From Pseudonocardiaceae bacterium (GTDB lineage Bacteria; Actinomycetota; Actinomycetes; Mycobacteriales; Pseudonocardiaceae), in NCBI GenBank assembly GCA_035640975.1, contig DASQVB010000492.1, positions 1 to 44,262 on the forward strand: a stretch of DNA of 44,262 nt, given 5' to 3'. Of the stretch, positions 2,386 to 28,695 are shown in pieces (positions within the stretch are counted from its first letter, which is position 1; the number at the start of each line of letters is the position of its first letter). Made by a program: the position numbers and the translations under genes. The notes beneath the pieces are model-generated. The model did not search any database. It was not told where the DNA came from and saw only the letters and a program-made list of their open reading frames with translations.

Positions 2386-4548
2386 CTAGCCCTCCTGCCC
2401 CGCGGGTGACGGCGTGGACGGCATCGGCTTGCCGTCCTGAGACTGAGGCTTCGCCGCGTTGCCCATGCCAAGCTCCTCGGCCTGCGCGGTCTGAGCCGCT
2501 AGCGCCTGAGCTTGCTGCTGTGCTTCCAGGGACTGAAAGCCGCGGTAGACCTCCATCGCCACCTCGTGCATTTCGGGCTCCAGGTTCGCCGCGTCCGGGG
2601 TCTTCAGCCACGTTTCGAAAACCCACTTCTGGACCTCCACGTTGTCGAACTCGCGTGGCATCCAGCCGGGGATCTCGGCCAGCTTCGGCTCGCCCGTCGC
2701 GACCACGCCGGTCTCCGGGTTCACAACCGGCTGACCGGTTGCCGGATCGATCAACGGCTCCGGTGCCGTCAACATCGGCGCCCCGGTCATCGGATCGATC
2801 TGCGGGCGCTTGGGCATGTCCCAGATCGAGCCATCCAGGATCTTCTGGATGACCATGTTCGCCCGTGCCTTGTCGAACTCAAAGGACTCGATCAACGACT
2901 CCGGGCTGGCGCCGTTCATGGCGATCTCGATCGCCACCTCTGGCCGCATGTAGCCGGGGAAGTTCGCCTGGATCCAGCCGAGCTGCGACAGCATCGCCTG
3001 ACGCGAGCGCGTCTCGATCGTGGCCGGATTCACCGTCACGTCGACCTGGCCCATGATGCTCGCCCCACGGAAGGACTGCACCGGCTCCCAGCCAAACCGA
3101 CCCCGGACCTTCAGGATGCGGTCTTCGTTGTAATGGTGCTGGGCGAGCAGCAGGCAATGCCTCGCGATCGCCGAATCCCACGAGGCCAAATCTTCGAGGA
3201 AGGAGCTCCAGCGGTTCGCCGCCTGCTGGATGACCTGTTGCACCGCGCCGGCCGCGACGTTCGGGGCCACGTCCACGTCCGTGTCGGCGGCGACATAACG
3301 CATGTCCTGAAGCGCCCGGTCCAGAATCTGCATGAGCTGGCCTATCAAGCCAGGGTCCGGGGAGCGCTCCCACTCGGGCTTGTAGCCGCCCACCGGGTTG
3401 TAATAGATGATCTCGCCCGGCTCGTCGGATGGCGCCTGATCCAGCGAGCCCTTCGGGGCCAGCATCTGCAACCGCAAACCGCGGTTCTTTATCTCGATGA
3501 TCTTGTTATACGTGTCATTGAGGGTGCGCTGGAAGTCGATCAGCTCCCACGTCAGGCCCAGGTCGCGCTCGTTGTCGGGGTCCAGCCGGTAGGACAGGCG
3601 GTGGATGCACGGCTCGTCGAGCACTCGCGCCGGCTCGCCCCTGGATTCAGGCTGCACCATCGGATAGTGCATCGGCGGGACGATCATCCGCCCACCCGCG
3701 AGCGTGAGCATCCGGCCATCCCTGTAGCGCGGGGACGGACGCTCGAAGTACAGCGTCACCATCACCATGTCCTCGTCGGGCCTATCGATCGGGATGTCCT
3801 TCGTGGACGCGTCCGGTTGAAGAACGCCGCCGATAAAGCCGTGCATCTGCTGCACCTCGGCGATCGGCCGAGCCGTCTCCCAGGCATGCCAGCGCGAATG
3901 GTAGAACTCGGTCCCGGGCTCCCAGAAGACCTCGTTGCCGTTGCCCACCAGGACCTTGATCTCGCCCTCGCCCACCAGTCGGTCCGGGGAACCGTCCTCA
4001 GGGTCGCCGGGCACCATCCGAAACGGACCCACCATCGGATCGAAGTACGGCAGCGCGAACGCCGAGCCACCCTCGCCGATCGCCGTCGTGACCGCCTTCA
4101 CCCGGGCCTCGCGCAGATACCAGCGCTTGTAGCCCTGGCGCAGCAGCTTGCCCGCAAGCTGCGATGCCTCGGTGTCCTCCGGGTCCGTGGAGCTCGGATT
4201 GACCTCATAGCCGGGTACGCGCGTGGTGCTCGATGACACCTTCGCGTCGACCATCGGCCGGATGAAGTTGTACTTGTTGCGCACCCGATGGCGGGGCTTG
4301 CCGGCGTTCACGCCCGGGGCCGTGAACTGCTGATTCAGAGCGCCCTTGTTATCTAGGTAGAAGTAGGCTTCGCCCTTCAAAAACAGCGAGCACAGCCGCC
4401 GCTTGTGGGCGTCACGCTTCATCCATGCCCGACCACGCTCCAGGCGCTTGCGCACATCCGGCGGAACCTCGATCGGCTTCAACGGCGCGGGCTCGGGAGG
4501 CTCGTCAGCCTTGCCGAGCACGCGGCGGGCACCGTCCAGGACGCTCAC
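2386..4548 (-). CDS. portal protein (putative)
   Basis: 720-aa ORF, the largest in the head module, upstream of scaffold and capsid. ATGA overlap with the upstream gene. Assigned by size and synteny. Confidence 0.6.
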   Translation of the reverse strand: MSVLDGARRVLGKADEPPEPAPLKPIEVPPDVRKRLERGRAWMKRDAHKRRLCSLFLKGEAYFYLDNKGALNQQFTAPGVNAGKPRHRVRNKYNFIRPMVDAKVSSSTTRVPGYEVNPSSTDPEDTEASQLAGKLLRQGYKRWYLREARVKAVTTAIGEGGSAFALPYFDPMVGPFRMVPGDPEDGSPDRLVGEGEIKVLVGNGNEVFWEPGTEFYHSRWHAWETARPIAEVQQMHGFIGGVLQPDASTKDIPIDRPDEDMVMVTLYFERPSPRYRDGRMLTLAGGRMIVPPMHYPMVQPESRGEPARVLDEPCIHRLSYRLDPDNERDLGLTWELIDFQRTLNDTYNKIIEIKNRGLRLQMLAPKGSLDQAPSDEPGEIIYYNPVGGYKPEWERSPDPGLIGQLMQILDRALQDMRYVAADTDVDVAPNVAAGAVQQVIQQAANRWSSFLEDLASWDSAIARHCLLLAQHHYNEDRILKVRGRFGWEPVQSFRGASIMGQVDVTVNPATIETRSRQAMLSQLGWIQANFPGYMRPEVAIEIAMNGASPESLIESFEFDKARANMVIQKILDGSIWDMPKRPQIDPMTGAPMLTAPEPLIDPATGQPVVNPETGVVATGEPKLAEIPGWMPREFDNVEVQKWVFETWLKTPDAANLEPEMHEVAMEVYRGFQSLEAQQQAQALAAQTAQAEELGMGNAAKPQSQDGKPMPSTPSPAGQEG

Positions 4549-4772
4549 CGCAGAGCCTCGGCCATCGCCTCGCGCGAAACGTGGTGGGCTTCGTCGTCAT
4601 CCCAACCCACGGCAGGCGGGGACACGGGAAGCTGCCCCATCGCGTGCGCGGTCACCGCAACTTCCGGGGCCTGGATGCGTTGCAGCAACGCCTGGCGTTC
4701 ACGACTCGCGGACCACACGTACAGGCCGAAGGCGACCACCTGGGCCACGCACACGATCGTCAGGTAGATCAC
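4545..4772 (-). CDS. small membrane protein
   Basis: 75 aa with an N-terminal hydrophobic helix (IYLTIVCVAQVVAFGLYVW). Start and stop overlap both neighbouring genes. Confidence 0.5.
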   Translation of the reverse strand: MIYLTIVCVAQVVAFGLYVWSASRERQALLQRIQAPEVAVTAHAMGQLPVSPPAVGWDDDEAHHVSREAMAEALR

Positions 4773-5455
4773 GGCAGCTCCGCGAACTCGACATAGCTGC
4801 CCGCCTTGGCCGTAATGGCCGATGATGCGACCTCGCTGGCGAAACGAGCGACGACGGTCCCGGCGGCAGATGGTGCGATCACGCCCTCGATGATCGCAAG
4901 GTTCCCGGCGGCGACGCTGGACAGGTTGCTCGCGGCCGGAAGGTTGTAAGCGGTCAGGCCCGCGTTCACCGTCTCGCTGGTAGCCGTCAGGGTGTACTGC
5001 GAGCGGTAGGACACACGCGTGGTGGCCGGGCCGTTGATGGCCCAGCGCGAGCCGGTCGTAGCCGCCGCGGCCGTGTAGTCGACGGTGAAGCTGAAGCAGT
5101 AGCGCTTGCCTGCCGCGACGGGGAAGCCAAGCCCCGTCACGTCCTGCAATGTGTTCGCCACAGCGTTGGCGTTGACCACGTCAGCGCCAAGCACTACACG
5201 CGTGATGCCGGCTGCGCCCGTGGGACCCGTCTGCCCCGTGTCGCCCTTGACGCCCGGATCGCCCTTGTCTCCCTTTGGTCCGGGCACCGTAGAGGCGGGT
5301 CCGGAATCGCCCGTCGGGCCGCGCGGCCCCTCAAGCGAGGCGAGAAAATCATCCACCGTCCCCACATTACCCGCCTCCAGCCACAGCTCATAGGCACTCA
5401 GTCCGGACGGTCCTTCCCCCAGCCCGGGGATGTGAGGGACGTTCAAAACCGGCAT
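4769..5455 (-). CDS. collagen-like-repeat fibre / receptor-binding-like protein
   Basis: 228 aa. SAYELWLEAGNVGTVDDFLASLEG motif, then G-X-Y triplets (GPRGPTGDSGP..GPKGDKGDPGVKGDTGQTGPTGAAG), then a beta-rich C-terminal domain. This architecture is typical of actinophage minor tail/fibre proteins. Confidence 0.65.
   Translation of the reverse strand: MPVLNVPHIPGLGEGPSGLSAYELWLEAGNVGTVDDFLASLEGPRGPTGDSGPASTVPGPKGDKGDPGVKGDTGQTGPTGAAGITRVVLGADVVNANAVANTLQDVTGLGFPVAAGKRYCFSFTVDYTAAAATTGSRWAINGPATTRVSYRSQYTLTATSETVNAGLTAYNLPAASNLSSVAAGNLAIIEGVIAPSAAGTVVARFASEVASSAITAKAGSYVEFAELP
5207..5329 (-). repeat. coding G-X-Y (collagen-like) triplet repeat
   Basis: Residues G43-G83 of the 228-aa protein; coordinates derived from codon counting. 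Confidence 0.7.
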
Positions 5456-7146: not shown

Positions 7147-8721
7147 TCACGACAGGGCACCCATCGGCGGCGCCGGGCCGGGCGGGCCATGAATCTCATG
7201 GCCCTTCAGGGCCCTCCCCGGCCGCCAGCCCAGATTACGCTCCGCTGCCCGGGCTTCCATCTGCGGGTACCAGGGCCGCGCCATGCACTGGTAGCGCAAC
7301 GTGGCGAGCCGGTGAAAGGTGGAGTCGTCGCCTGGCCCGATCGTCTCGTCGTCGTCCATCTCCCAGGCGAACTCGTCGGCCTCGTCGCGCAACCCCAGGC
7401 AGGACTCGAACACGAACAGGCGCTTGTGCTTCAGACGATCACGGATCTGCTGCTGACCCGCCTCACGGTCGCGGTTGCCATTCATCGTGAACAATCCCAG
7501 ACGGGTGAGCTCGGACTGAACAGTGTCCCCCGTGGCCTGCGAACGCTGGCGGGCCGCGGGATCGATGACGAACAGGACATCCTGTCGCGTCAGCCCCCAC
7601 GCGCTCAGCATCCGATCGATGCCCGCCACGTACGCGGAGGGCGTGCCATCCTGGATCAACAGCTCGTCATAGATCCAGTCGGTACCGTGCTGATCGAAGC
7701 CGCCCGCCACCACGGCGGCGTTGCGGATGCCGGGGTCGATGGCCCACACGTGCTCAAGCGTGCGCACGAAGTCCGCGCCACGGGCCGGGATCACCCGGGA
7801 TTCCATCTCGGCGTAGATCAGCCCGGCAGCGTCCATGAAATCACCAAACTCGCGGGCCTGGCGCCAGATGTCGTTCTTGTAGGCCGCCAGGATGCGCTCG
7901 ATCGCCTGGCGCGGCAGCTTCGGGTTGTCGCGCATCGCCCACTTGCAGATCGTGATGTTGGGGTCCTCGCGGTTGCGCCACAGCACGCGCCGGATCCAGC
8001 CGACGTTGCTCTTGAGCGGCGTCATCGTGAACCACTCCGGACCGTCTGATTGCAGCAGCCGCGTTATGCACTCGTCACGGTGGCCCTGCGGCGGTGGCTC
8101 GTCGTAAAGCACCCAGTCGATCGTCGCCGACGTGAGCGTGGACGGGTCCTGCTTGTAGGTCTTGAAAGTGATCGTGGAGCCGCTGGCGAAGGTGAGCTGC
8201 ATCCGCTCGCCGTTGAAAGCCTTGCCCCAGTTGCCTCCCTTGAGGGCCTGCTTGGGACACCACTTCTCGATCGTCGGCTTCAGCGAATCGAAAATCTTGT
8301 CCTCGGTGGGGCACAAAATCCAACCGTGCGAGGGCGCCTCGAACTGCTTGAAGGGCACCAGGTGCCCGGGCACCAGCTCACGCGGCAGGACCTGGATCAG
8401 CGCCTTGACGATGCCGATCGTCGTCTTGCCCGACTGGTTGCCGCAGAGCGCCAGAACCACCTTCGTGATCGCCGCCAGGAAGGCAAGCTGCTCGCGCTTG
8501 CCGTCCGTCGGGCTCGGCTCATGCGGCTTGAAGGCGTTCAGCGGGTTGGCCGCCACGACGCGCTCGATCTCCTTGAGGATCTGCCGCGCCGCCTCCTGCT
8601 TCTCGGGTGGGAGCTTCGACAGATCCACGTCGGGCGCCCCGACGAAGCGCTCTAGCTCCTCGTACTGAGCTGCGATGCGCCGCGCCTGCTCCTTCAAGGT
8701 TGGCTCGGCGAGAGTGGCCAC
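7147..8721 (-). CDS. terL: terminase large subunit
   Basis: Walker A GNQSGKTT, Walker B VLYDE, and RNaseH-like nuclease motifs (WAIDPG, VIDPAA). Start trimmed to GTG 8721, the first in-frame start after the HNH stop at 8742. Confidence 0.85.
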   Translation of the reverse strand: MATLAEPTLKEQARRIAAQYEELERFVGAPDVDLSKLPPEKQEAARQILKEIERVVAANPLNAFKPHEPSPTDGKREQLAFLAAITKVVLALCGNQSGKTTIGIVKALIQVLPRELVPGHLVPFKQFEAPSHGWILCPTEDKIFDSLKPTIEKWCPKQALKGGNWGKAFNGERMQLTFASGSTITFKTYKQDPSTLTSATIDWVLYDEPPPQGHRDECITRLLQSDGPEWFTMTPLKSNVGWIRRVLWRNREDPNITICKWAMRDNPKLPRQAIERILAAYKNDIWRQAREFGDFMDAAGLIYAEMESRVIPARGADFVRTLEHVWAIDPGIRNAAVVAGGFDQHGTDWIYDELLIQDGTPSAYVAGIDRMLSAWGLTRQDVLFVIDPAARQRSQATGDTVQSELTRLGLFTMNGNRDREAGQQQIRDRLKHKRLFVFESCLGLRDEADEFAWEMDDDETIGPGDDSTFHRLATLRYQCMARPWYPQMEARAAERNLGWRPGRALKGHEIHGPPGPAPPMGALS

Positions 8722-8741
8722 GCCAAGATTCTCGCAGCGAG

Positions 8742-9161
8742 CTAGGTCGCCTTCTCGATCAGCGGCAGGATGTACGGTGCCGCCGAAACCAGGCAAAACA
8801 TCAGACCGAACGTGATCACGCTGCGCTTCAGGCGTCGTACGAACCGATTGCCGCGGGTCCGGCGCTTCGCCCGGCGACGCCCGTTCGCGGCGCGGCGCTG
8901 GGCATCCGCAACGGTGTGACAGCCGCCACGGCCGGCGCATAGCACGACGAGGTCCTCGGGCTGCTCGCATCCGAGGTTCTCATAGTTGTTGTGGTGGACC
9001 TCAAGGTGTCGGCCGATGAGGCGCAGCCGCTTGAGCGGTAGGCCGCAGAGCTGGCAGCGGTAGCACGCGCGCTCAAGCGCGGCCTTACATATGCGTCGCC
9101 ATTCTGGCGAGCGCAGATGCGCCTTGTACTGGGCGCTGTGATTGGGGCGCCGACGAAACAT
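8742..9161 (-). CDS. HNH endonuclease with C-terminal hydrophobic helix
   Basis: CYRCQLCG..LEVHHNNY..LVVLCAGRGGCH is an HNH/zinc motif. The last 25 aa contain VITFGLMFCLVSAAPYILPLI (codons GC3-rich, so likely real). 1-nt start/stop overlap with the upstream gene. Confidence 0.8.
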   Translation of the reverse strand: MFRRRPNHSAQYKAHLRSPEWRRICKAALERACYRCQLCGLPLKRLRLIGRHLEVHHNNYENLGCEQPEDLVVLCAGRGGCHTVADAQRRAANGRRRAKRRTRGNRFVRRLKRSVITFGLMFCLVSAAPYILPLIEKAT

Positions 9162-10666
9162 CAGGCACCCCCGTTCAGCAGCAACCGCTTTGCCGCCTCG
9201 GCCTCGGCACGCTGCCTGGCGTCCATCCGCGCCGGCCCCTGAACCTCGCCGCTAAGCACCCGGCGCAAGTGAGCGCCGGGGGACTCGCGCGGCGCGTAAT
9301 GCTCCACCAGCGTCCGGATGCCCTCGTTCGAGACGTAGAATGAGCGGCCCAGTTGCAACTCGGTCTCGCCGTCGATGACGAAGAACGCCTTGCCGGGAAG
9401 ATCCAGCGTCTCGGTCTCGGCGCCGCGCTCACGGGCACCCGGACCCAACGTCATGTCAGCGTGCAGGCGCTCCAATGAGCGGTGCTGGATGCGCTGGGGA
9501 TACAGGTCACGAGTCTCCATCGTGGCCTTGTTGGGGTTCTGCACACAAGAGACAAGCACCACGCCCGGTGCGCGGCCCTGAGTCAGGATCAGCTTCTGCC
9601 AACGGTCGATGTTCTTCTTGGCATCCGAGGTCTCGGCCAGCAGGTTGAGCACCGCCGCCTCATCCACGATCAACAAGATCAGCGGCTCGTCCGGCGTCGG
9701 AACGTGCTTACGAATGCCGTGCTTCTCGCAGTAGGCCATCCGCTTGTCCAGGCGTGCCACGACGTTCTCGATGACTCGCAGCATGTCCTCGATGTCCGAC
9801 TGCGCGTAGCCGCCCCCGAACAGCTCCCGGCCAGGACCCAGCTCCATACCACCCTTCGGGTCGATCGCGTGGACCTCCACCAGACCGTCGCGGATCGCGG
9901 GCGCGATGCCGTGCAGGATCGCCCAGACCAGGACCGACTTGCCCGAGCCGATCTGACCAGCGACGAGCAGATGGCTCCCAAGGATCCGCAACGTCCACGG
10001 ATCGCCGTCCTCGGTCAGGCCGACCGTGACGCGCTCAAGGTCCACGCTCTCAGAGATCGGTGGCGGGGCAATCGGCGTAGCGAGACGATCGACCTGGGGA
10101 AACGACAGCCAGAAACGGTCGTGGCGCTTGAGGTCCTTGTGCACCCGGCACTTCGCTGCGTTGAACGCCACCGCCAGGTCCGGCGCCGCGGCGTACCAGT
10201 CGCCGATCTGCCCGCGCGCCGGCTTGACCAGGATGCGATCCGTGTACGGCGTGAACTCGAACTTGACCATCCGCGGGATCTTGTCGCGGCCGTGTGGGAT
10301 AGGGATGTGCAGGAAGTGATGGCGCATCGTGGCGTTCCACTTGCGGCGGTAGATGAGATGCTTGCGGCGCAGGCCACCTACCCGCCAACCCGCGACAACC
10401 TCGTAGGACTCGCGGTCAGCCAGGCGCCATACGACAAGACCCAGGATCGTGGACAGCAGGACCCATTGGACGAGCGCGTAGACATTGCTGGCGCCCACCC
10501 AGAGACACATCAGGATCACGGCCGCCAGGGTCGCGATGCCGACGGTTCGCCGCAAAGCCCACGCCAAAAAGAACAACGGCCAGACGATGACCAGCAGACT
10601 GACGTACACGATCGTGGCCGTCAGCGGGTCCCGCGGCGTCCTGCCCAGATCCTTGGGAAGCCTCAT
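9161..10666 (-). CDS. FtsK/SpoIIIE-family DNA translocase, membrane-anchored (TraB-like)
   Basis: N-terminal 3-4 hydrophobic helices, Walker A GQIGSGKS, Walker B LILLIVDEAA. Start set to ATG 10666 (ATGA overlap with the upstream stop) rather than the track GTG at 10696. Confidence 0.8.
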   Translation of the reverse strand: MRLPKDLGRTPRDPLTATIVYVSLLVIVWPLFFLAWALRRTVGIATLAAVILMCLWVGASNVYALVQWVLLSTILGLVVWRLADRESYEVVAGWRVGGLRRKHLIYRRKWNATMRHHFLHIPIPHGRDKIPRMVKFEFTPYTDRILVKPARGQIGDWYAAAPDLAVAFNAAKCRVHKDLKRHDRFWLSFPQVDRLATPIAPPPISESVDLERVTVGLTEDGDPWTLRILGSHLLVAGQIGSGKSVLVWAILHGIAPAIRDGLVEVHAIDPKGGMELGPGRELFGGGYAQSDIEDMLRVIENVVARLDKRMAYCEKHGIRKHVPTPDEPLILLIVDEAAVLNLLAETSDAKKNIDRWQKLILTQGRAPGVVLVSCVQNPNKATMETRDLYPQRIQHRSLERLHADMTLGPGARERGAETETLDLPGKAFFVIDGETELQLGRSFYVSNEGIRTLVEHYAPRESPGAHLRRVLSGEVQGPARMDARQRAEAEAAKRLLLNGGA

Positions 10667-11196
10667 GCGACGCGATAGTCCTTCAGTCGATGCCACGCAA
10701 TGCGCCGACGCTTAGAGCCCACGCACACGATGTACTGGCCGGGCTCGATGTAAACCACCTCGCGGGGCCGCGCATGGCCGATACCTCCGACGATCCGGTC
10801 GCCGACCCTAAACGGACAGGCATCGACCTGATCCTGGAAGCGCGGACCGGTATGCCACGGGTCGTAGTCGGCAACCCAGCCTCGCGTCCTGACATCGGCC
10901 CTGGCAACCAGTTCGAGCAGGTTCACGCCGTCACGCAGGGCGCAGTGGCCCATGACAGCGAGGCGTTCCCGCGCGTGCTGGCGTTTGCCACGGCACATGA
11001 AGATCACCTCGTCCAACGGGAGACCGCCGATCGCGTCGGGCGGGTCGCGCATCAGGTCCGCTAGATCGAGCTCCTCGGCATCGATGCGCTGACGCAAGGC
11101 CATGCGTTCCCGGCGGCGCCGGAGGGACAATTCCAGGCCGTGGACCGCATGGGAGGGGGCGCCTGGTGAGACTCGGGGTGTAGCCTCGGCTTGCAT
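10663..11196 (-). CDS. hypothetical protein, first gene of the long leftward block
   Basis: 177 aa, with SD-like GTGAGG upstream of ATG 11196. No motif recognised; the start is uncertain (an internal ATG is possible). Confidence 0.5.
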   Translation of the reverse strand: MQAEATPRVSPGAPSHAVHGLELSLRRRRERMALRQRIDAEELDLADLMRDPPDAIGGLPLDEVIFMCRGKRQHARERLAVMGHCALRDGVNLLELVARADVRTRGWVADYDPWHTGPRFQDQVDACPFRVGDRIVGGIGHARPREVVYIEPGQYIVCVGSKRRRIAWHRLKDYRVA

Positions 11197-13190: not shown

Positions 13191-13469
13191 ATGAGGCCCC
13201 GTCGAACGGTCATCAGCACTCGTGTCTTCCGCTTAGCGGGCGGCACGGAGGACAACGACCTATGGGTCACCGACTACGGTCCCGACGAGGGCGGTCCGGT
13301 GATCGGCTCAACGTGGGAGCTGTCCGATACTGAGCGTGCTGCGATTGCATCGGGCGCGAACGTCGAGCTCCTGGTGTGGGGCAGTGCACAGCCGCCTGTT
13401 GCTTTGCGCCTCTCGACCTACGCCCTCGGGAAAGCGCCGCCGCCGAGCCCGACCCTTGGGCGAAGCTGA
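13191..13469 (+). CDS. hypothetical protein (92 aa)
   Basis: ATG ORF from the track; no motif recognised. Confidence 0.5.
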   Translation: MRPRRTVISTRVFRLAGGTEDNDLWVTDYGPDEGGPVIGSTWELSDTERAAIASGANVELLVWGSAQPPVALRLSTYALGKAPPPSPTLGRS

Positions 13470-13470
13470 A

Positions 13471-13899
13471 GTGACCGATCGAGTCCTCCTGGTGGCCAGC
13501 ATCACGGCTCTCCTCGTCGCCCTGTCGTCCTTCATGTACGCGGCACGGGCCGCGGACTACGAGCTCCCGCGCTGCGACCATGATTGTCGCGAACGCGTCG
13601 AGAAGCGTGAAGCCCGCGAGAAGTGGCGCGCGGCGGTGCGCGCCTACGGCATTGGCACGTTACGGGCTCGGATGCGCTGCGAGTCCGGCAGCCACGGCGG
13701 CTACGAGTACGTCACCAACGGCCTGTTCTGGTTTGCACACCAGTTCGAGCCGCGTGCCTGGGCGGCGGCCGGCGGGCGGCTGCGCAATGGCCGCCCGGTA
13801 GGCGTGTGGAGCATGCAGCCCGAGCGTTTGGAGCAGGACGTGCGGGCGGTCTACTGGGATGAGATCCATCCAGGCGATCCATGGCCCAATTGTCCCTAG
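13471..13899 (+). CDS. secreted/anchored transglycosylase-like (Rpf-like) domain protein
   Basis: GTG 13471 lies 1 nt after the upstream stop. Signal-peptide-like N-terminus (VLLVASITALLVALSSFMYAARAAD). RCESGSHGG..GLFWFAHQFEPRAWAAAGG..DPWPNCP matches the CESG..G..QF..W..GG..WP.C pattern of Rpf/transglycosylase-like domains. Confidence 0.6.
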   Translation: MTDRVLLVASITALLVALSSFMYAARAADYELPRCDHDCRERVEKREAREKWRAAVRAYGIGTLRARMRCESGSHGGYEYVTNGLFWFAHQFEPRAWAAAGGRLRNGRPVGVWSMQPERLEQDVRAVYWDEIHPGDPWPNCP

Positions 13900-13908
13900 C
13901 GAAACGCG
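13893..13908 (+). repeat. 16-bp direct repeat TCCCTAGCGAAACGCG, copy 1
   Basis: Identical to 14360..14375. Contains the TAG stop of the Rpf-like gene. Confidence 0.95.
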
Positions 13909-14359
13909 CATCAAGCTCGTCGTGCGCGATCTCCGCATGCCCTGCTAGGGAGTCGACTCCGTCGATCCCGCAGACCGATCGCCTTCAAGCAGACGGTCCC
14001 ACTCACGTAGCGCCTCATCAACCTCGCGCTTTAGCTTCTCGTCCTCGCGAAGGGCCTCTTCGCGCCGTTCTCGCGGCGAACGCCCATTGTTGTCGCCGCT
14101 TTGCTCGCCCACAGATCGGTCCCCTTGATGCCTGCCCTGTTCTTCGGAGCAAAACATCGTACTCCTTCATCTACCCCGGAAGAGAAGAAGCCATGAAAGA
14201 CGATAACCCAGACGTGACCGCCAGTCGTCTCGTCTCAATCGCCCTGAAGATCGCGCATAATCAGCGCGTCGCGTGGGATGCGGTCGGAAACTCCGTCGGC
14301 GCCAGCGTCCCATCATGGGACGACGAACCGCGCCCCCCACGACACTCAAGGCCCAGCTA
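13909..14359. other. 451-bp segment bounded by the 16-bp direct repeat (candidate insertion)
   Basis: Carries two small divergent ORFs. Removing one repeat plus this segment would abut the two convergent flanking genes with stops overlapping in CTAG. Confidence 0.5.
13945..14157 (-). CDS. hypothetical highly charged protein (70 aa) inside the insertion
   Basis: SD GAAGGAG upstream of ATG 14157. E/R/D-rich and coiled-coil-like. Confidence 0.4.
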   Translation of the reverse strand: MFCSEEQGRHQGDRSVGEQSGDNNGRSPRERREEALREDEKLKREVDEALREWDRLLEGDRSAGSTESTP

Positions 14360-14366
14360 TCCCTAG
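14193..14366 (+). CDS. hypothetical protein (57 aa) inside the insertion
   Basis: ATG 14193 preceded by purine-rich GGAAGAGAAGAAG. Terminates at the TAG inside repeat copy 2. Confidence 0.35.
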   Translation: MKDDNPDVTASRLVSIALKIAHNQRVAWDAVGNSVGASVPSWDDEPRPPRHSRPSYP

Positions 14367-14375
14367 CGAAACGCG
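14360..14375 (+). repeat. 16-bp direct repeat TCCCTAGCGAAACGCG, copy 2
   Basis: Identical to 13893..13908. Contains the stop (CTA on the plus strand) of minus-strand gene 14363..14758. Confidence 0.95.
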
Positions 14376-14758
14376 TCTGAGCAGATCAACGCGAGGCCCG
14401 GCACGACCAGCCACGCGTTCGTGACGAAGCCAAGCAGCAGGAAAAGCAGGCCCATGGCCAGGATCAGACTTGACCAGTGCTCACGCCACGGCTGCTCGAC
14501 GGCGAACGGGTTATCCTTCGTGGCCCGTTCGAAAGGACTCTCATGCTCTCGATCGTCAAGCTGATCCCGTTCTTCGGCGAGGTGCTCGGCACCATCCCGG
14601 ACGGATTGAACTTCGTCATCAACGGCGTCACGTTGTTGTTGCTCGGCGGTACCTAGGGTGTCGGGCGGATGGTTTTCCGAACGCGATGCGGTTCGCGACG
14701 AGGCTCCGTGGTGGCACGCATTCTGGGAGTATGCGTTGCTGCTTGGCGTGATCGGCAT
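14363..14758 (-). CDS. membrane protein (acidic N-half, two C-terminal TM helices)
   Basis: 131 aa with SD GAGGTAG. Hydrophobic stretches WSSLILAMGLLFLLLGFV and AWLVVPGLALI. Confidence 0.55.
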   Translation of the reverse strand: MPITPSSNAYSQNACHHGASSRTASRSENHPPDTLGTAEQQQRDAVDDEVQSVRDGAEHLAEERDQLDDREHESPFERATKDNPFAVEQPWREHWSSLILAMGLLFLLLGFVTNAWLVVPGLALICSDAFR

Positions 14759-14764
14759 GGTGGT

Positions 14765-14971
14765 CTACCTCGTGGTGTGGTTGGTCTGATCGCGTGGCGG
14801 TTGCTTGGTGATGTGCCAGCCGCCGCAGTATTTGCACGGCCCGTAGATGCGAAGCGAGGCACGGCGGAGCTGCTCGCCGTTGATCCGCGCGTACTTGCGG
14901 GCCCTGGCAGCTGAGGGGTAACTGGTCTTGGATCGGGTGCCCTGAAGGTTGTAGCAGCGCGGGTAGCTCAT
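14765..14971 (-). CDS. small zinc-ribbon-like protein (68 aa)
   Basis: Trimmed to ATG 14971 (ATGA overlap with the upstream stop). C-terminal YGPCKYCGGWHITK motif. Confidence 0.5.
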   Translation of the reverse strand: MSYPRCYNLQGTRSKTSYPSAARARKYARINGEQLRRASLRIYGPCKYCGGWHITKQPPRDQTNHTTR

Positions 14972-15189
14972 GGCACCGGCTCCCATGATCCCACGGGCCG
15001 GCGCTCCAGCCACACTTCCTCGAAGAGTGGCTGGAGCCGATCGGCCTTGATCTGTGCTTCCTTGAGCGTCTGGTACGTCTCGTGGACCCACATGCTGCCG
15101 AGCCGGGTGCTGCCGTAGTCTGGCTCGGCCCGTTTGGACCAGCGGCCGCCGACGCGGTACTCGAAGAGCTCGGCTGATGACGGGTCCAT
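14968..15189 (-). CDS. hypothetical protein (73 aa)
   Basis: Track ORF, coupled to the downstream gene. Confidence 0.5.
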   Translation of the reverse strand: MDPSSAELFEYRVGGRWSKRAEPDYGSTRLGSMWVHETYQTLKEAQIKADRLQPLFEEVWLERRPVGSWEPVP

Positions 15190-16118: not shown

Positions 16119-16838
16119 TTACGAGGGGGCGGTCTGACCGTTGATCACCACGACGCGCTGATCCTCGCCGAGCGCGACCATCCGCCCGAGCAGATCCATC
16201 GCGGACCGCTTGACTTCGGTGCGTCCCGGCGTGAGCCTCTCGACCCACAGTGCATCGAGGCGTTCGATGTCATCCCACTTGGCATCGGCAGCGGTAGCGG
16301 CGTCTACGGCAGCGGCGGCGGCGTCTACGGCGGTAGCGGCGTCTACGGCGTCTACGGCGGCGATGGCTACGGTGTCGGCGGGCTTAACCTTCAAAGTCTC
16401 CACAACGGCTGCGCGCACCCGTCCAGTACGAGCGGACGCCGGGTCGGTGATCTCCGGGAGCGCCCGCATCTCTGCGGCGGCGTCCTGTGCGCCCGCGATC
16501 TCAAGCCACGTCGGGAGGGCGACACGGACCGTCCAATCCGTCGCCATATATCCGCGGGCCTGCTGGTAGCCGTCGCCAGCGGTACCGATGATGCGCGACA
16601 GAAACGGCTTGAGTGCTTCGCGGCCCTCCGAATCCGTCAGGTCGTTGTAGCGCCGCAAGAACGCGGCAAGCACGGGACAGAAACAGACCGGGCGGTCAGA
16701 CCAGGGCTCGCCGGCGACGTAGGACGCGAGCTCCATGATGCACGCGCCATCTTCTAGGTCATCGTGAGGCCCAGCCTTGAGCTCGATGGAGAGGGCCTCG
16801 TCGAGGCGGTTACGGCTGATGTGGATGGTTTTGGTCAT
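16119..16838 (-). CDS. hypothetical protein (239 aa) with internal Ala/Val/Asp repeat
   Basis: Track ORF with a conserved-looking ACIMELASYVAGEPWSDRPVCFCPVL segment. Function unknown. Confidence 0.6.
   Translation of the reverse strand: MTKTIHISRNRLDEALSIELKAGPHDDLEDGACIMELASYVAGEPWSDRPVCFCPVLAAFLRRYNDLTDSEGREALKPFLSRIIGTAGDGYQQARGYMATDWTVRVALPTWLEIAGAQDAAAEMRALPEITDPASARTGRVRAAVVETLKVKPADTVAIAAVDAVDAATAVDAAAAAVDAATAADAKWDDIERLDALWVERLTPGRTEVKRSAMDLLGRMVALGEDQRVVVINGQTAPS
16290..16378 (-). repeat. imperfect tandem repeat, four copies of GCGTCTACGGC (codes A-V-D/A-T-A repeats)
   Basis: GGCGTCTACGGC at 16299, 16320 and 16338, plus an overlapping copy at 16348. Read directly. Confidence 0.8.
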
Positions 16839-19001: not shown

Positions 19002-19277
19002 ATGACCAACGACTCAACCGCCACCGCCACGAGCGACACCTACGTGCAGAAGGCCAACGAGCGCCGCGCCGCCCGGCGCGGCTACCTTGTGTTTGCTACC
19101 GACCCCTCTCGAAGCCCTGACGAGCCCGGATATCGCGAGGTGTTCGCGACCGAGGCCAAGACACCGGCCCGAGCGGCTGCCAAGGTCCGCCCACTCGCCG
19201 CTGGTCGGCGGCTGCGCACCTACCTGGCCACCGGCACCTACCGCAACGAGCTCGCCGAAGCTCGCTGGGTCGCGTAG
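19002..19277 (+). CDS. hypothetical protein (91 aa), leaderless
   Basis: Track ORF beginning MTNDSTATATSD... Confidence 0.6.
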   Translation: MTNDSTATATSDTYVQKANERRAARRGYLVFATDPSRSPDEPGYREVFATEAKTPARAAAKVRPLAAGRRLRTYLATGTYRNELAEARWVA

Positions 19278-19310: not shown

Positions 19311-19338
19311 CGAAGGGCTGCCACTGTGCAGCCTTTCG
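19311..19338 (+). terminator. intrinsic terminator T1
   Basis: 11-bp stem (one G-U pair) CGAAGGGCTGC / GCAGCCTTTCG, loop CACTGT, tail TCGTTTGTGTCT. Confidence 0.6.
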
Positions 19339-19386
19339 TCGTTTGTGTCTGAGGCCGTATCCTCCTGACCTTTCGACCAGTGTGGC

Positions 19387-19421: not shown

Positions 19422-19466
19422 ATGAACCGCCACTACTGTGATGAAACCACGAGCAGGGGGGCGTAA
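19422..19466 (+). CDS. leaderless mini-ORF (14 aa, MNRHYCDETTSRGA) coupled to the next gene
   Basis: The ATG sits at the leaderless position of P2. Its TAA overlaps ATG 19466 (TAATG) and its last codons contain the SD-like AGGGGGG. Confidence 0.3.
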   Translation: MNRHYCDETTSRGA

Positions 19467-19717
19467 TGCCCGGCATCGAGCGTAGTTTCGCCGTCGTGCT
19501 GACCGAGGAGGCCGTGCCCGACTATTGGTGGAGTTACGACTGTGCCATTCACGCTACGGGGTGCGGCGAGGTCGCGAAGGCACGGCGTGGCTACTGCACG
19601 GTGTACCACCATCGCGCCGCCGACTTGGAGGCGCTTGCGACACAGTTGCGTGCCGATCTGACTGAGGAGCGTGGGGGCGAAGATGTGAGCGTCGTCGTTA
19701 TGCCCTGCGCTCGATAA
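19466..19717 (+). CDS. hypothetical protein (83 aa)
   Basis: Track ORF. Confidence 0.55.
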   Translation: MPGIERSFAVVLTEEAVPDYWWSYDCAIHATGCGEVAKARRGYCTVYHHRAADLEALATQLRADLTEERGGEDVSVVVMPCAR

Positions 19718-19750: not shown

Positions 19751-19786
19751 ACGACGAGGGGCTGCCACTGTGCAGCCCTTCGTCGT
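19751..19786 (+). terminator. intrinsic terminator T2 (repeat of T1)
   Basis: 15-bp stem ACGACGAGGGGCTGC / GCAGCCCTTCGTCGT with the same CACTGT loop. Shares CACGGGGAACG..GGGCTGCCACTGTGCAGCC..TTCGTCGT with T1. Confidence 0.6.
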
Positions 19787-25034: not shown

Positions 25035-25478
25035 CTAGGGCAGTAGTCGGACATCGATCTCAGTGCGCGGCCACTCGCCTGAGTTGATCCAGTGACGTGC
25101 GACATAGGCGGTGCAGAACCGCACATCATCCCGCCAGGCGCGGGTGTTCAACGCGTCGCACAGCAGCTTGATCGCGTTGTCCACGTCGGGCTTGGTCTTC
25201 AGGGGCCAGGGGGTGCGCAACCCTTCGGCGGACAGCGATCCATCACGCCTGAAGTGGCCAGCGGGCCGCGCCACCCGGAGCACCATGTGCAAGGCCAACG
25301 GCCCGTCCACCATCCTAGGTGCGCCTGCCTGCAGCCATACGCGGCGGATTTCGTCCTCCGCGAGCTTCTGTGGCTTGCCGGCGTAGGCGCGGCCGTTGGC
25401 GAAGCGGGGACGCGGCTGGCCCTTGGGGCGACCGTCGATCACGAGCGCGAAGGCGTCGACCTCAACGTGGTCGGTCAC
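25035..25478 (-). CDS. rusA: RusA-family Holliday-junction resolvase
   Basis: Trimmed to GTG 25478 (GTGA overlap). VIDGRPKGQPRPRF ... KPDVDNAIKLLCDALN ... match RusA hallmarks. Confidence 0.75.
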   Translation of the reverse strand: MTDHVEVDAFALVIDGRPKGQPRPRFANGRAYAGKPQKLAEDEIRRVWLQAGAPRMVDGPLALHMVLRVARPAGHFRRDGSLSAEGLRTPWPLKTKPDVDNAIKLLCDALNTRAWRDDVRFCTAYVARHWINSGEWPRTEIDVRLLP

Positions 25479-26793: not shown

Positions 26794-27833
26794 GTTGTGG
26801 CGGTCTCCTTGATCTTGAACTCCCGGCCACCCCCGGGCTTCTCGTGCCAGCCCAGCAGGCCACCAGGGGCGGGGATGTAGCGTGGCTCATCAGCGCTCTC
26901 GTGAAACGCCTTGAGGCTCCGGCGCTGCTGCTCGGCCAGTGCCTTTACCACCACCCAACGTGTCGCTTCGGCGGTGGCATCCTCGATGGTGGACAGCACT
27001 CCCGTCCCACGCGCTTCAGCCGGAATCGGGCAAGCACGAACCATCGGGCAATGCGAGCAATACCCGGGCCATGGCCGTGGCTCGGGTTCAAGCTGGCCCT
27101 TCATCGAGCGCTCGAAACGCATCGCCAGTAGGCCCAGACGATGCTCGACATGCTCAAGCTCGGCGCGATGAAGCACAGCCTCGCGCACCTCGTTAAGCCG
27201 GGGATAGTACTCGCGCAGCGTCACGCGATCGACGCCCGGCCACTCGGACATGATGAGCAGACCGCCCGTGTCCAACTGAAAGGTCCCGCCGTCACTGAGA
27301 TAGCGGCGGCCGTTGTCGCGCGAGAAGTCGCCATCCTTCGGCGTGGAGGGAATGGCCCAGCCCGTCTTGAAGTCCAGGTAGATGATGCCCTTCGGCGGGT
27401 CGGCCAACAGCACGTCAGGCTTGCCGGTGATCCGGCGTGTGATGCCATCGGGACACGGAACCTCGGCGTACAGGCGCTTCTCGATGGCGAGGATGCGCGC
27501 AGGAGTCCACTCGAAGGACGAGAACATGATGATCAGGATGTGCAGCTCGCGTAGCTGGGAGTCCGACAGGTGCGGGCAGTCGTCGCGGGCCACAACCTCT
27601 CGGCCAATCTCGACGGCCTCCTGAGGGGGCAGCGCTTTCTCGCCCTGTCGCGCCAGTGTGCGCAGACATTCCTCGGCCACCATGTGAAACGCCGTACCGA
27701 GCGCGGCCCACGGGTTAGAGTAATTGTCAAAGGCGCGCGCTTCGTGAACCGCTCGCAGTGGACACTTGTCGTAGCCGCGCAGCGTGGACTGGCGGACCAC
27801 GCCATCGATGAAGGCGCCGTGCTCAGGAGGCAT
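26790..27833 (-). CDS. Cas4/RecB-family PD-(D/E)XK exonuclease with Fe-S cysteines
   Basis: N-terminal Cys (DKCPLRA), GKPDVLL..IIYLDFKTG nuclease core, C-terminal CSHCPMVRAC. The start could be ATG 27833 or ATG 27854. Confidence 0.7.
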   Translation of the reverse strand: MPPEHGAFIDGVVRQSTLRGYDKCPLRAVHEARAFDNYSNPWAALGTAFHMVAEECLRTLARQGEKALPPQEAVEIGREVVARDDCPHLSDSQLRELHILIIMFSSFEWTPARILAIEKRLYAEVPCPDGITRRITGKPDVLLADPPKGIIYLDFKTGWAIPSTPKDGDFSRDNGRRYLSDGGTFQLDTGGLLIMSEWPGVDRVTLREYYPRLNEVREAVLHRAELEHVEHRLGLLAMRFERSMKGQLEPEPRPWPGYCSHCPMVRACPIPAEARGTGVLSTIEDATAEATRWVVVKALAEQQRRSLKAFHESADEPRYIPAPGGLLGWHEKPGGGREFKIKETATT

Positions 27834-28695
27834 CCGGCGTCTTCTCCATGCCATCGAGGTCTGCGTGAGCTACCTGTACCCATGAGCGCACGATGTTCGC
27901 GGGACGGCCGGCGACGAGCATGTGCACGGTCTCGGGATCGGAGAACTGCGCGTGGCCCAGCTTCTGCGCACGTTCGATGACCGCCAGGACCTCTAGTGGC
28001 AGGACCATCGGCTTCGCCTCGGTCTCGGTCTCCTCCGGGATGTCGCCTTCCTCCGGGTCCACCGATCCCGCAACATGGCCATGGTCCAGCGGTTCGCCGA
28101 AATGCTCGATGCCGTGCGTCTCCAGCCACCGCTCGTAACGAGATCGCAGCTCAGCCTGCCCATTGTCGGTGAGGTAGTAGCTCTGTTTCTTCTGCCCGTT
28201 GGGTCCGGGCTTCTCGTAGACCCGGACGTGGCCTCGCTCCACGTAGAGAACCATGGCAGGCAATGCGTAGAGGCTGACCCCCACGCCGAACTTGACGGCA
28301 GCGCGCTTGAAGGCATCCGAGTACAGCGCCTTGAAGGGCATCGCCGAACTGGTGCCCGATGACCATCCCACGTCCGAGCGCGTGATGCCGTCGATCGTGA
28401 TGTCACAGCGCAGCCCGCCGGGAACCTCCTCGAAGTGGTCTGACCACAGCGCAGGGCAGACATGATTCAGGCGGTCGATGGCGGTTCGCGCGGTGATGTA
28501 GGCGGCGCAGTTGGCCCGCTTGCCGTCGCGGCCCTCAAGGATGCGGAACTGTACGGCGTGAGTGGTGAACGGGCGGCGTAGGTCGGGGGCCGCCGAGCGG
28601 AGCGTGACCGGATGACGCGCCGGTGTCTGCCATCTGCCATATGTGATCGTCTTGTCGCGTCCTACGATCGGCTCGGGCGGTGGCGCGTCAGTCAT
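27823..28695 (-). CDS. Rad52/Sak-like single-strand annealing protein
   Basis: Trimmed to ATG 28695 (ATGA overlap, SD AGAGGA). AYITARTAIDRLNHVCPALW and FKALYSDAFKRAAVKFGVGVSLY resemble the Rad52-family core. Confidence 0.6.
   Translation of the reverse strand: MTDAPPPEPIVGRDKTITYGRWQTPARHPVTLRSAAPDLRRPFTTHAVQFRILEGRDGKRANCAAYITARTAIDRLNHVCPALWSDHFEEVPGGLRCDITIDGITRSDVGWSSGTSSAMPFKALYSDAFKRAAVKFGVGVSLYALPAMVLYVERGHVRVYEKPGPNGQKKQSYYLTDNGQAELRSRYERWLETHGIEHFGEPLDHGHVAGSVDPEEGDIPEETETEAKPMVLPLEVLAVIERAQKLGHAQFSDPETVHMLVAGRPANIVRSWVQVAHADLDGMEKTPDAS

Follow-up and report, generated by a model that had tools for sequence, protein, structure and literature searches.

In phage genomes, a moron is extra DNA that lies between genes which are adjacent in related phages. 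Among the actinobacteriophages there is a class of insertions that are flanked by short direct repeats, known from a few mycobacteriophages. In the Cluster C1 phage LRRHood a 1.35-kb segment with genes 43-46 lies between 29-bp direct repeats, one copy being at the extreme 3' end of a gene; Cali has a single copy and represents the empty site, and acquisition via recombination within the repeat was favoured by the authors (PMC3029335). In Cluster O, Corndog gene 14 has a 17-bp direct repeat, and YungJamal gene 60, which is transcribed against its neighbours, has an imperfect 24-bp repeat with 14 nt conserved; the ultra-small mobile elements MPME1 and MPME2 of mycobacteriophages, at ~440 bp, are a further reference point (PMC4351075). 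Phage recombinases of the Rad52-like type are known to generate mosaics where homology is short or diverged (PMC3945230). The present analysis concerns contig DASQVB010000492.1 (44,262 nt, filed under Pseudonocardiaceae; the whole stretch is called the window below), which is a tailed-phage genome, and in it a 451-bp segment, the patch, that follows an Rpf-like gene and is enclosed by two copies of a 16-bp direct repeat. Three of the four features that define the repeat-flanked class of LRRHood, Corndog 14 and YungJamal 60 are found here, namely a short repeat (16 nt exact, 25/29 nt when extended) around 451 bp, a position of the repeat on gene-end stop codons, and enclosed DNA of other origin. 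We consider it fairly probable that the patch is a mosaic of the moron type acquired by recombination where the stops of the Rpf-like gene and of a convergent membrane-protein gene (Mem) overlapped, the repeat being that old junction, now present on both sides.

The 16-mer (TCCCTAGCGAAACGCG) occurs at exactly two sites in the window, 13893-13908 and 14360-14375, even with two mismatches allowed, and the initial annotation was right both in calling the repeat perfect and in the stop codons that it assigned to each copy. Both copies sit on stop codons and do so in the same frame. In copy 1 (13893..13908, plus strand) T, CCC and TAG form the end of the Rpf-like gene, with TAG 13897-13899 as its stop, and are followed by CGAAACGCG; in copy 2 CTA 14363-14365 is the stop of a minus-strand open reading frame (ORF) at 14363-14758 and TAG 14364-14366 the stop of a plus-strand ORF of 57 aa (o57). 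The 16-mer read on the plus strand is T-CCC-TAG, the Rpf-like gene end, and read on the minus strand it is GCG-TTT-CGC-TAG, that is A-F-R-stop of Mem, with the CTAG common to both readings. CGAAACGCG is the reverse complement of the final three codons (A-F-R) of the membrane ORF plus one base of a D codon and is without a local role in copy 1, which holds 9 nt that are meaningful solely as a Mem end.

Leftward the repeat can be extended to 29 nt, with copy 1 at 13880..13908 (plus strand, CATGGCCCAATTG and then the 16-mer) and copy 2 at 14347..14375 (plus strand, CAAGGCCCAGCTA and then the 16-mer at 14360-14375). The two match at 25 of 29 positions (86% identity; repeat family D14), the additional leftward matches being 9 of 13 (binomial P = 0.002), and past these 29 nt no flank similarity was found on either side by local alignment against shuffles. 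Together with its degenerate 13-nt extension, copy 2 reads in frame as R-P-S-Y-P-stop and copy 1 as W-P-N-C-P-stop, and copy 2 has AGC where the relatives have AAC and copy 1 has AAT. From its codons copy 2 looks as if the tail of an Rpf-like gene, now degenerate, had been joined to the 3' end of the membrane ORF. Because each copy carries bases native only to the gene on the opposite side, the repeat looks like a duplicated tail-to-tail Rpf/Mem junction, and the reciprocity of the copies is the strongest argument against coincidence.

That these are native gene ends is seen from relatives. The C-terminus GDPWPNCP* of the Rpf-like protein is nearly invariant in the family alignment, and Mem of a related contig (L006) ends ...LLCWVAWR*, close to ...ICSDAFR* in the window, so that the stop in copy 2 is probably the native one of Mem. 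It had been proposed that deletion of one copy with the DNA in between would leave two overlapping stops, and since the 16-mer joins the native 3' ends of the Rpf-like gene and Mem, as compared with L006, this does follow, the reconstructed empty site being ...GGCCCAATTGTCCCTAGCGAAACGCGTCTGAGCAGATC.... An arrangement of that kind exists in contig L005 (Rpf protein 76% identical), where a convergent gene abuts the Rpf stop directly (...CCG TAG CTA GCG..., TAG|CTA).

An octamer within the repeat (TCCCTAGC) is present three times in the window with 0.63 expected, and all three sites are here (13893 plus, 13944 minus, 14360 plus), the minus-strand copy at 13944 sitting on the stop of the second ORF of the patch (70 aa, o70). 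The first two of these form a hairpin at 13893..13951 with a 9-bp stem, in which 13893-13901 (TCCCTAGCG) pairs with 13943-13951 (TGCTAGGGA), at -29.7 kcal/mol (z = -2.8); it spans the stops of the Rpf-like gene and of o70 and looks terminator-like, yet is without a T-tract. A 12-bp palindrome pointed out by the initial annotation (GGAGTCGACTCC, 13949-13960) is present and was dropped as a feature, twelve-nt palindromes being unremarkable here, with 15 seen in the window against ~20 expected.

The DNA between the repeat copies had been taken for an insertion, and its foreign nature is borne out by a GC content of 0.614 versus 0.665 for the window, which places it among the lowest 1.8% of 451-bp windows, and by homologues of both ORFs in unrelated contexts. 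Judged by these comparisons the segment is foreign and itself a mosaic, consisting of at least three patches, namely a ~200-bp piece with o70, a ~150-bp piece with o57, and non-homologous joints. As first described, a divergent pair of small ORFs is present, of 70 aa with a good Shine-Dalgarno (SD) sequence and of 57 aa, and only the ATG of the latter had to be moved, to 14193 from 14194. The two, o70 at 13945-14157 on the minus strand and o57 at 14193-14366 on the plus strand, are arranged head to head, their start codons 35 bp apart; each is without its operon partner and its native 3' end, and both read out into junction DNA that ends TCCCTAG.

The o70 ATG at 14157 is preceded at 5 nt by the strong SD GAAGGAG, and in its homologues the start corresponds to GTG 14112. 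The o70-homologous patch proper (13977..14178, minus strand; ~73-79% nucleotide identity to Solirubrobacteraceae chromosomal and soil loci, ~78% for a Solirubrobacteraceae chromosomal gene) comprises the intergenic/SD region and the o70 core, and leaves out a 121-aa partner gene and the C-terminal tail, which in o70 (13945-13976) is non-homologous to relatives. A small conserved family (P0041-P0045, 66-81% identity) is found on two contigs of Solirubrobacteraceae metagenome-assembled genomes, one of 200 kb, and on five soil contigs, always directly after a ~121-aa gene for a membrane protein with two transmembrane segments and often beside an insertion sequence (IS) transposase. Against the host copies o70 has a ratio of nonsynonymous to synonymous substitution rates (dN/dS) of 0.12-0.27, the same as among the host copies themselves, with dS of ~0.6-1.2. 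This family makes o70, by sequence criteria, a real conserved small gene, and an AlphaFold model of its product is one long alpha-helix over residues 28-63. In Solirubrobacteraceae and soil loci (contigs L022, 580-1603; L024, ~3580-4640; L025, ~3340-5330) the 121-aa membrane-protein gene is paired with a 59-aa helix-protein gene, and the pair is repeatedly followed by a convergent IS transposase (DDE/DUF772) whose stop overlaps or abuts the small gene; such a pair may travel with the IS or be a preferred target of it.

Measured against the phage's own codon usage, o57 scores close to zero. A word-indexed search returned the window's own protein only; when HMMER was run in full on 1.8 billion representative proteins, a single homologue was convincing, P0049 (63 aa; E = 4e-7, residues 1-48 being 57% identical). 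Two other matches, P0047 and P0048, looked like spurious products of translating repetitive DNA and were set aside. The homology to P0049 spans 14186-14336, the last nine codons of o57 being a non-homologous read-out into the repeat, and over the first 25 codons dN/dS is 0.09. By this homology o57 is a real gene as well, and the substitution patterns indicate that both o70 and o57 are under purifying selection. The idea that o57 might be a decayed Rpf paralogue was ruled out by hhalign (probability 0.3%). On its metagenome contig (L026) the P0049 gene overlaps the stop of an SDH_protease (PF01972) gene. That locus, at 116-2340, runs from the SDH_protease/NfeD-like gene through P0049 to a 215-aa protein matching the PADLOC candidate defence family PDC-S54 (E = 1e-24) and may be a defence-island context.

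Sequence searches of the PDB gave nothing useful for o70 or o57, and neither matches Pfam, NCBIfam, PHROG or PADLOC; no Rfam family is present in the window or the region. In 13400-15000 there is no sigma-70-like promoter, actinobacterial promoter types being outside the scan. No transposase or recombinase ORF lies in the segment, which for the transposase agrees with the first reading of the sequence, and there is no integrase among the phage proteins scanned in a genome scan that was not exhaustive.

The closest long syntenic relative, contig L003, has an Rpf-like protein 70% identical to that of the window and has in common with it the FtsK-like gene, g65, g109, g73, g104 and g120. From its Rpf-like gene to g38, the homologue of window gene g37, there are 71 nt, versus 643 nt in the window, which means ~640 bp extra in the latter (13900-14542), a remnant of Mem included, and not the 467 bp at which the insertion had been put; the L003 site has neither a copy of the 16-mer nor Mem. 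Mem lies convergent to the Rpf-like gene in contigs L004 and L006 (Rpf protein identity 76%). In L004 the Rpf-like gene is followed by ~235 nt with a GC-rich hairpin and then by a Mem gene that is 257 bp longer than the one of L006, in L006 a different minus-strand ORF stands between the Rpf-like gene and Mem, and in L001 an HNH endonuclease gene and a terminase gene follow. As what separates the conserved end of the Rpf-like gene from the conserved gene that follows varies from relative to relative, the site is a hot spot. An empty site, which had been proposed as a check, was looked for among the nine contigs with the flanking ORF and was not found, all of them carrying the patch and being 100% identical.

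Two side observations belong with the variable site. The length difference between L004 and L006 is a 257-bp indel (L004 781-1037 versus L006 ~806) exactly at the Mem stop, which in L004 is flanked by an 8-bp direct repeat (GGCGCTCA) and lengthens the Mem ORF by ~70 codons; it is the second indel with flanking repeats that this hot spot shows. The gene g68, for a small Cys-rich protein with a KYCGGWHITK motif (window 14765-14971), has a homologue at L001 345-650, where it is upstream of the Rpf-like gene and on the same strand, and in the window it is downstream and convergent, which indicates an inversion or rearrangement between phage lineages. A further context, that of P0017, has another genome architecture and is uninformative.

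The initial annotation had listed recombination at a short boundary sequence among its possibilities, and this is also the best reading now. A donor molecule with the same or a similar short sequence beside an o70-o57 block would have recombined there with the phage, and two routes fit, namely a single crossover, if the partner was circular or concatemeric, and an unequal crossover between two related genomes with different fillers after the Rpf-like gene, for which the left breakpoint would be ~13 nt inside the Rpf tail of the partner; the unequal crossover would account for the degenerate Rpf-like codons before copy 2. Either route would yield one copy of the junction on each side of the patch. 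The phage has a Rad52-family annealing protein and an exonuclease, and these would be the likely catalysts, an involvement that we infer. The same repeats would permit a precise loss of the patch. As to expression, o57 lies in sense within the Rpf-g37-g43 transcript and is probably expressed by read-through, and o70 would be antisense to that transcript, with a strong ribosome-binding site and no recognisable promoter.

Several points weigh against this account. No relative was found in which a single copy of the 16-mer marks an Rpf/Mem junction, all nine contigs being identical and with the patch, and the nearest other relatives, ~76% identical in the Rpf protein, are too distant for comparison at the nucleotide level. 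The ~640 bp extra relative to L003, which includes the Mem remnant, needs more than one event, and the patch is a composite and was hence assembled before or after insertion. The divergence within the 29-mer is uneven, 4 of 13 positions in the left part versus 0 of 16 in the right part, and a single old duplication fits only moderately, as P is ~0.04-0.08 for 9 unconstrained nt to stay unchanged. Finally, a 16-nt repeat turns up by chance within 500 bp in ~1-3% of shuffles, a figure that is non-negligible, since the repeat was picked post hoc from a genome-wide look for oddities.

The last point leads to the unlikely, though best surviving, alternative that the repeat is a coincidence in ordinary mosaic filler, made of gene fragments joined by illegitimate recombination, so that nothing about mechanism follows from the 16 identical nt. 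In a window of such size and composition one would expect about one exact direct pair of at least 16 nt, and eight are observed; the region does consist of several independent patches, and the relatives hold different fillers. However, a pair no more than 500 bp apart is expected in 0.5-3.5% of shuffles only, the match goes on for 9 of 13 further nt with the P value given above, both copies sit on stop codons in the same frame, and chance does not predict that copy 1 has nine Mem-derived nt and copy 2 Rpf-like codons.

It is less likely still that the repeat-flanked arrangement is ancestral and that the segment was lost in relatives, the repeats then being the substrate of a deletion and not the scar of an insertion. 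L003 is without the whole region, and the mycobacteriophage papers leave the same alternative for Corndog gene 14 and LRRHood (PMC4351075, PMC3029335). Such a loss would leave the origin of two composite Rpf-end/Mem-end copies unexplained, and it is at odds with the foreign composition, with the homologues that the genes of the segment have in cellular contexts, and with an L003 site that has no 16-mer and no Mem.

A functional variant of acquisition, which we regard as improbable, has the patch as an anti-defence cassette that keeps the second-gene partners of two unrelated two-gene host systems as decoys or neutralisers and is gained and lost by Rad52-type annealing. The two systems in question are the two-transmembrane membrane protein with its single-helix protein, and the SDH-type protease with its small protein near the PDC-S54-like gene of L026.

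There is very little probability that the segment is an ultra-small mobile element, whether autonomous or mobilised in trans, similar to an MPME or a miniature inverted-repeat transposable element (MITE), or an integrase-less cassette with an att-like 16-bp core. Its 451 bp are close to the ~440 bp of the MPMEs (PMC4351075), the core is identical on both flanks, and the inverted TCCCTAGC at 13944-13951 gives 8-bp inverted ends around two ORFs. The segment has, however, neither terminal inverted repeats at 13909/14359 nor a 123-residue ORF, it encodes no recombinase or transposase, and searches of the window, INPHARED phages, plasmids and IMG/VR viral contigs turned up no second copy. The two halves differ in origin and in their partners elsewhere, and the exact 16-mer has two matches in IMG/VR, both in unrelated contexts. 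The segment likewise failed the tests for an att-type integrative element (no recombinase ORF in the segment, no integrase among the proteins scanned in a non-exhaustive genome scan, a 16-mer without dyad symmetry) and those for an IS, MITE or transposon (no transposase, no inverted repeat pairing 13909/14359). Equally remote is a functional toxin-antitoxin or regulatory pair moving as a unit, which the initial annotation had considered, for although two small ORFs are adjacent, one of them highly charged, and both are under purifying selection, they are divergent with so little DNA between their starts, have separate origins, are never together in their homologous loci, each take second place in a different operon of two genes (behind the gene for the 121-aa membrane protein or for the SDH protease) and match none of the four family collections searched.

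The genes around the site also need some revision, and here the initial annotation fares less well. Gene structure was judged from JGI gene calls, a codon-usage score and synteny. The Rpf-like (transglycosylase-like) gene of 147 aa is at 13456..13899 on the plus strand (JGI call); many of its 39 homologues, at 55-72% identity, have a precomputed PF06737 annotation, and the window protein itself has no Pfam match, being under the Pfam threshold for PF06737. Downstream, on the plus strand, are g37 (14543-14656) and g43 (14658-14789), both JGI calls with synteny to L003. Because L003 has homologues of g37 and g43 directly after its Rpf-like gene, the rightward Rpf operon runs through the site via these two genes, and the two operons that had been thought to converge at the repeat do so truly at 14765-14789, the leftward genes on the minus strand starting from 14765-14971.

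The leftward membrane-protein gene of the initial annotation, a 131-aa minus-strand ORF, is coding-like and homologous over its last ~50 codons only (score 0.44, GC at third codon positions 0.84), while the initial ~80 (score -0.10) lie antisense to g37 and g43. There is no start between ATG 14455 and ATG 14758, and the former, which would give the 30-codon ORF at 14363-14455 (minus strand), has no SD. It is therefore not a gene and only a Mem remnant of 30-50 codons is present, located at 14363..14515 on the minus strand (~50 codons), with a strong coding signal and homology to Mem of L004 and L006. The ENA and Logan pipelines call the full ORF (14363-14758) and JGI the 30 aa only; the long call is an annotation artefact of a type typical of high-GC DNA.

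Further along the window two other repeats were seen. Imperfect tandem repeats at 16281-16367, with start-to-start spacings of 21, 18 and 9 nt and units of the GGCGTCTACGGC type, sit within a minus-strand gene (16119-16838) and give rise there to a repetitive stretch of protein rich in Ala, Val and Asp. A 32-nt sequence that forms a hairpin (CGAAGGGCTGCCACTGTGCAGCC[T/C]TTCGTCGT) occurs at 19311-19342 and 19755-19786, 444 bp apart and with 94% identity, each copy just 3' of a small plus-strand gene (19002-19277 and 19466-19717), and looks like a reused terminator or regulatory hairpin.

The window corresponds to about the whole of a 44,273-bp metagenomic contig (JGI 3300040673, Ga0435669_0000018), and a separate ENA assembly has the same length as that contig in a different rotation. 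Its tailed-phage genes on the minus strand include the major head protein (27-1289), the portal protein (2386-4548), the large terminase (7147-8970) and an FtsK-like protein (9161-10696). RusA (25035-25478), a phage exonuclease (26790-27833, minus strand) and a Rad52/22-family single-strand annealing protein (27823-28695, minus strand; PF04098) make up a complete short-homology recombination module of the phage, the exonuclease/annealing-protein pair having a reported match to phrog_69. Seven further loci from independent ENA and Logan assemblies, several soil samples included, match the window at 100% identity from end to end, and because of this the repeat-flanked structure is not an assembly artefact; six of them (L012-L017) cover both copies of the repeat and the seventh (L018) reaches copy 1 only.

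Relatives are otherwise scarce. None with more than 80% identity was found in any collection searched, and at the DNA and protein level there are none among ~50,000 deposited phage genomes. The region, for which a search of phage genomes had been suggested, has no DNA match in INPHARED phages, near or distant, nor in plasmids, and with the Rpf-like protein, o70 or o57 as query tblastn gave no phage match either. IMG/VR scans with o70, o57, the o70 family and the L004 Mem protein returned no relatives, a GTDB genome scan with the Rpf-like protein no match, and a JGI metagenome scan with the Rpf family four loci only, all distant. The phage belongs to a lineage without cultured relatives, and the homologues of o70 indicate that Solirubrobacteraceae are the likely hosts.

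What the locus offers is a clean sequence-level example of how a phage mosaic joint is formed, with a foreign patch framed by a duplicated gene-end junction of 16-29 bp, in a phage that has its own single-strand-annealing recombinase. It extends a pattern of few mycobacteriophages to a distant group of actinobacterial phages and gives a concrete, testable deletion substrate, and it corrects the local annotation, in that the 131-aa "membrane protein" is mostly antisense to real genes. The recombination scar is real but ordinary, being of a kind already documented in phages of related bacteria, and calls for no new mechanism.

Set beside morons, the patch separates two genes, the Rpf-like gene and g37, that are neighbours in L003, and has a deviant composition and small accessory ORFs, but unlike them it has no promoter of its own detected in the scan for sigma-70-like sites and a terminator-like hairpin without a T-tract, and its ORFs are truncated, partner-less operon fragments. 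With the MPMEs it shares a similar size, the actinobacteriophage setting and the lack of a classical transposase, whereas terminal inverted repeats (~11 bp), one 123-residue ORF, a 6-bp added sequence and many near-identical copies are found with the MPMEs and not with the patch. As in the Rad52-like mosaic system (PMC3945230), the phage has an exonuclease and a Rad52/22-family protein and the junction offers 16-29 bp of homology; in contrast to that system, where the effect was shown in lambdoid phages, the role of the present enzymes is one that we infer. The closest likeness is to the repeat-flanked insertions. As with LRRHood, a short direct repeat of the 29-bp class surrounds a few small foreign genes with one copy at the 3' end of the upstream gene, although here the enclosed DNA is 451 bp and itself pieced together from two truncated genes, perfect identity is limited to 16 of the 29 nt, and no counterpart was found to the empty site known from Cali. 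As with Corndog 14 and YungJamal 60, short repeats lie over stop/start codons at a gene junction and one copy is degenerate; unlike these, which have known empty-site relatives and come from phages of Mycobacterium, the patch lies at a tail-to-tail junction with overlapping stops, in a phage whose host lineage is apparently the Solirubrobacteraceae.

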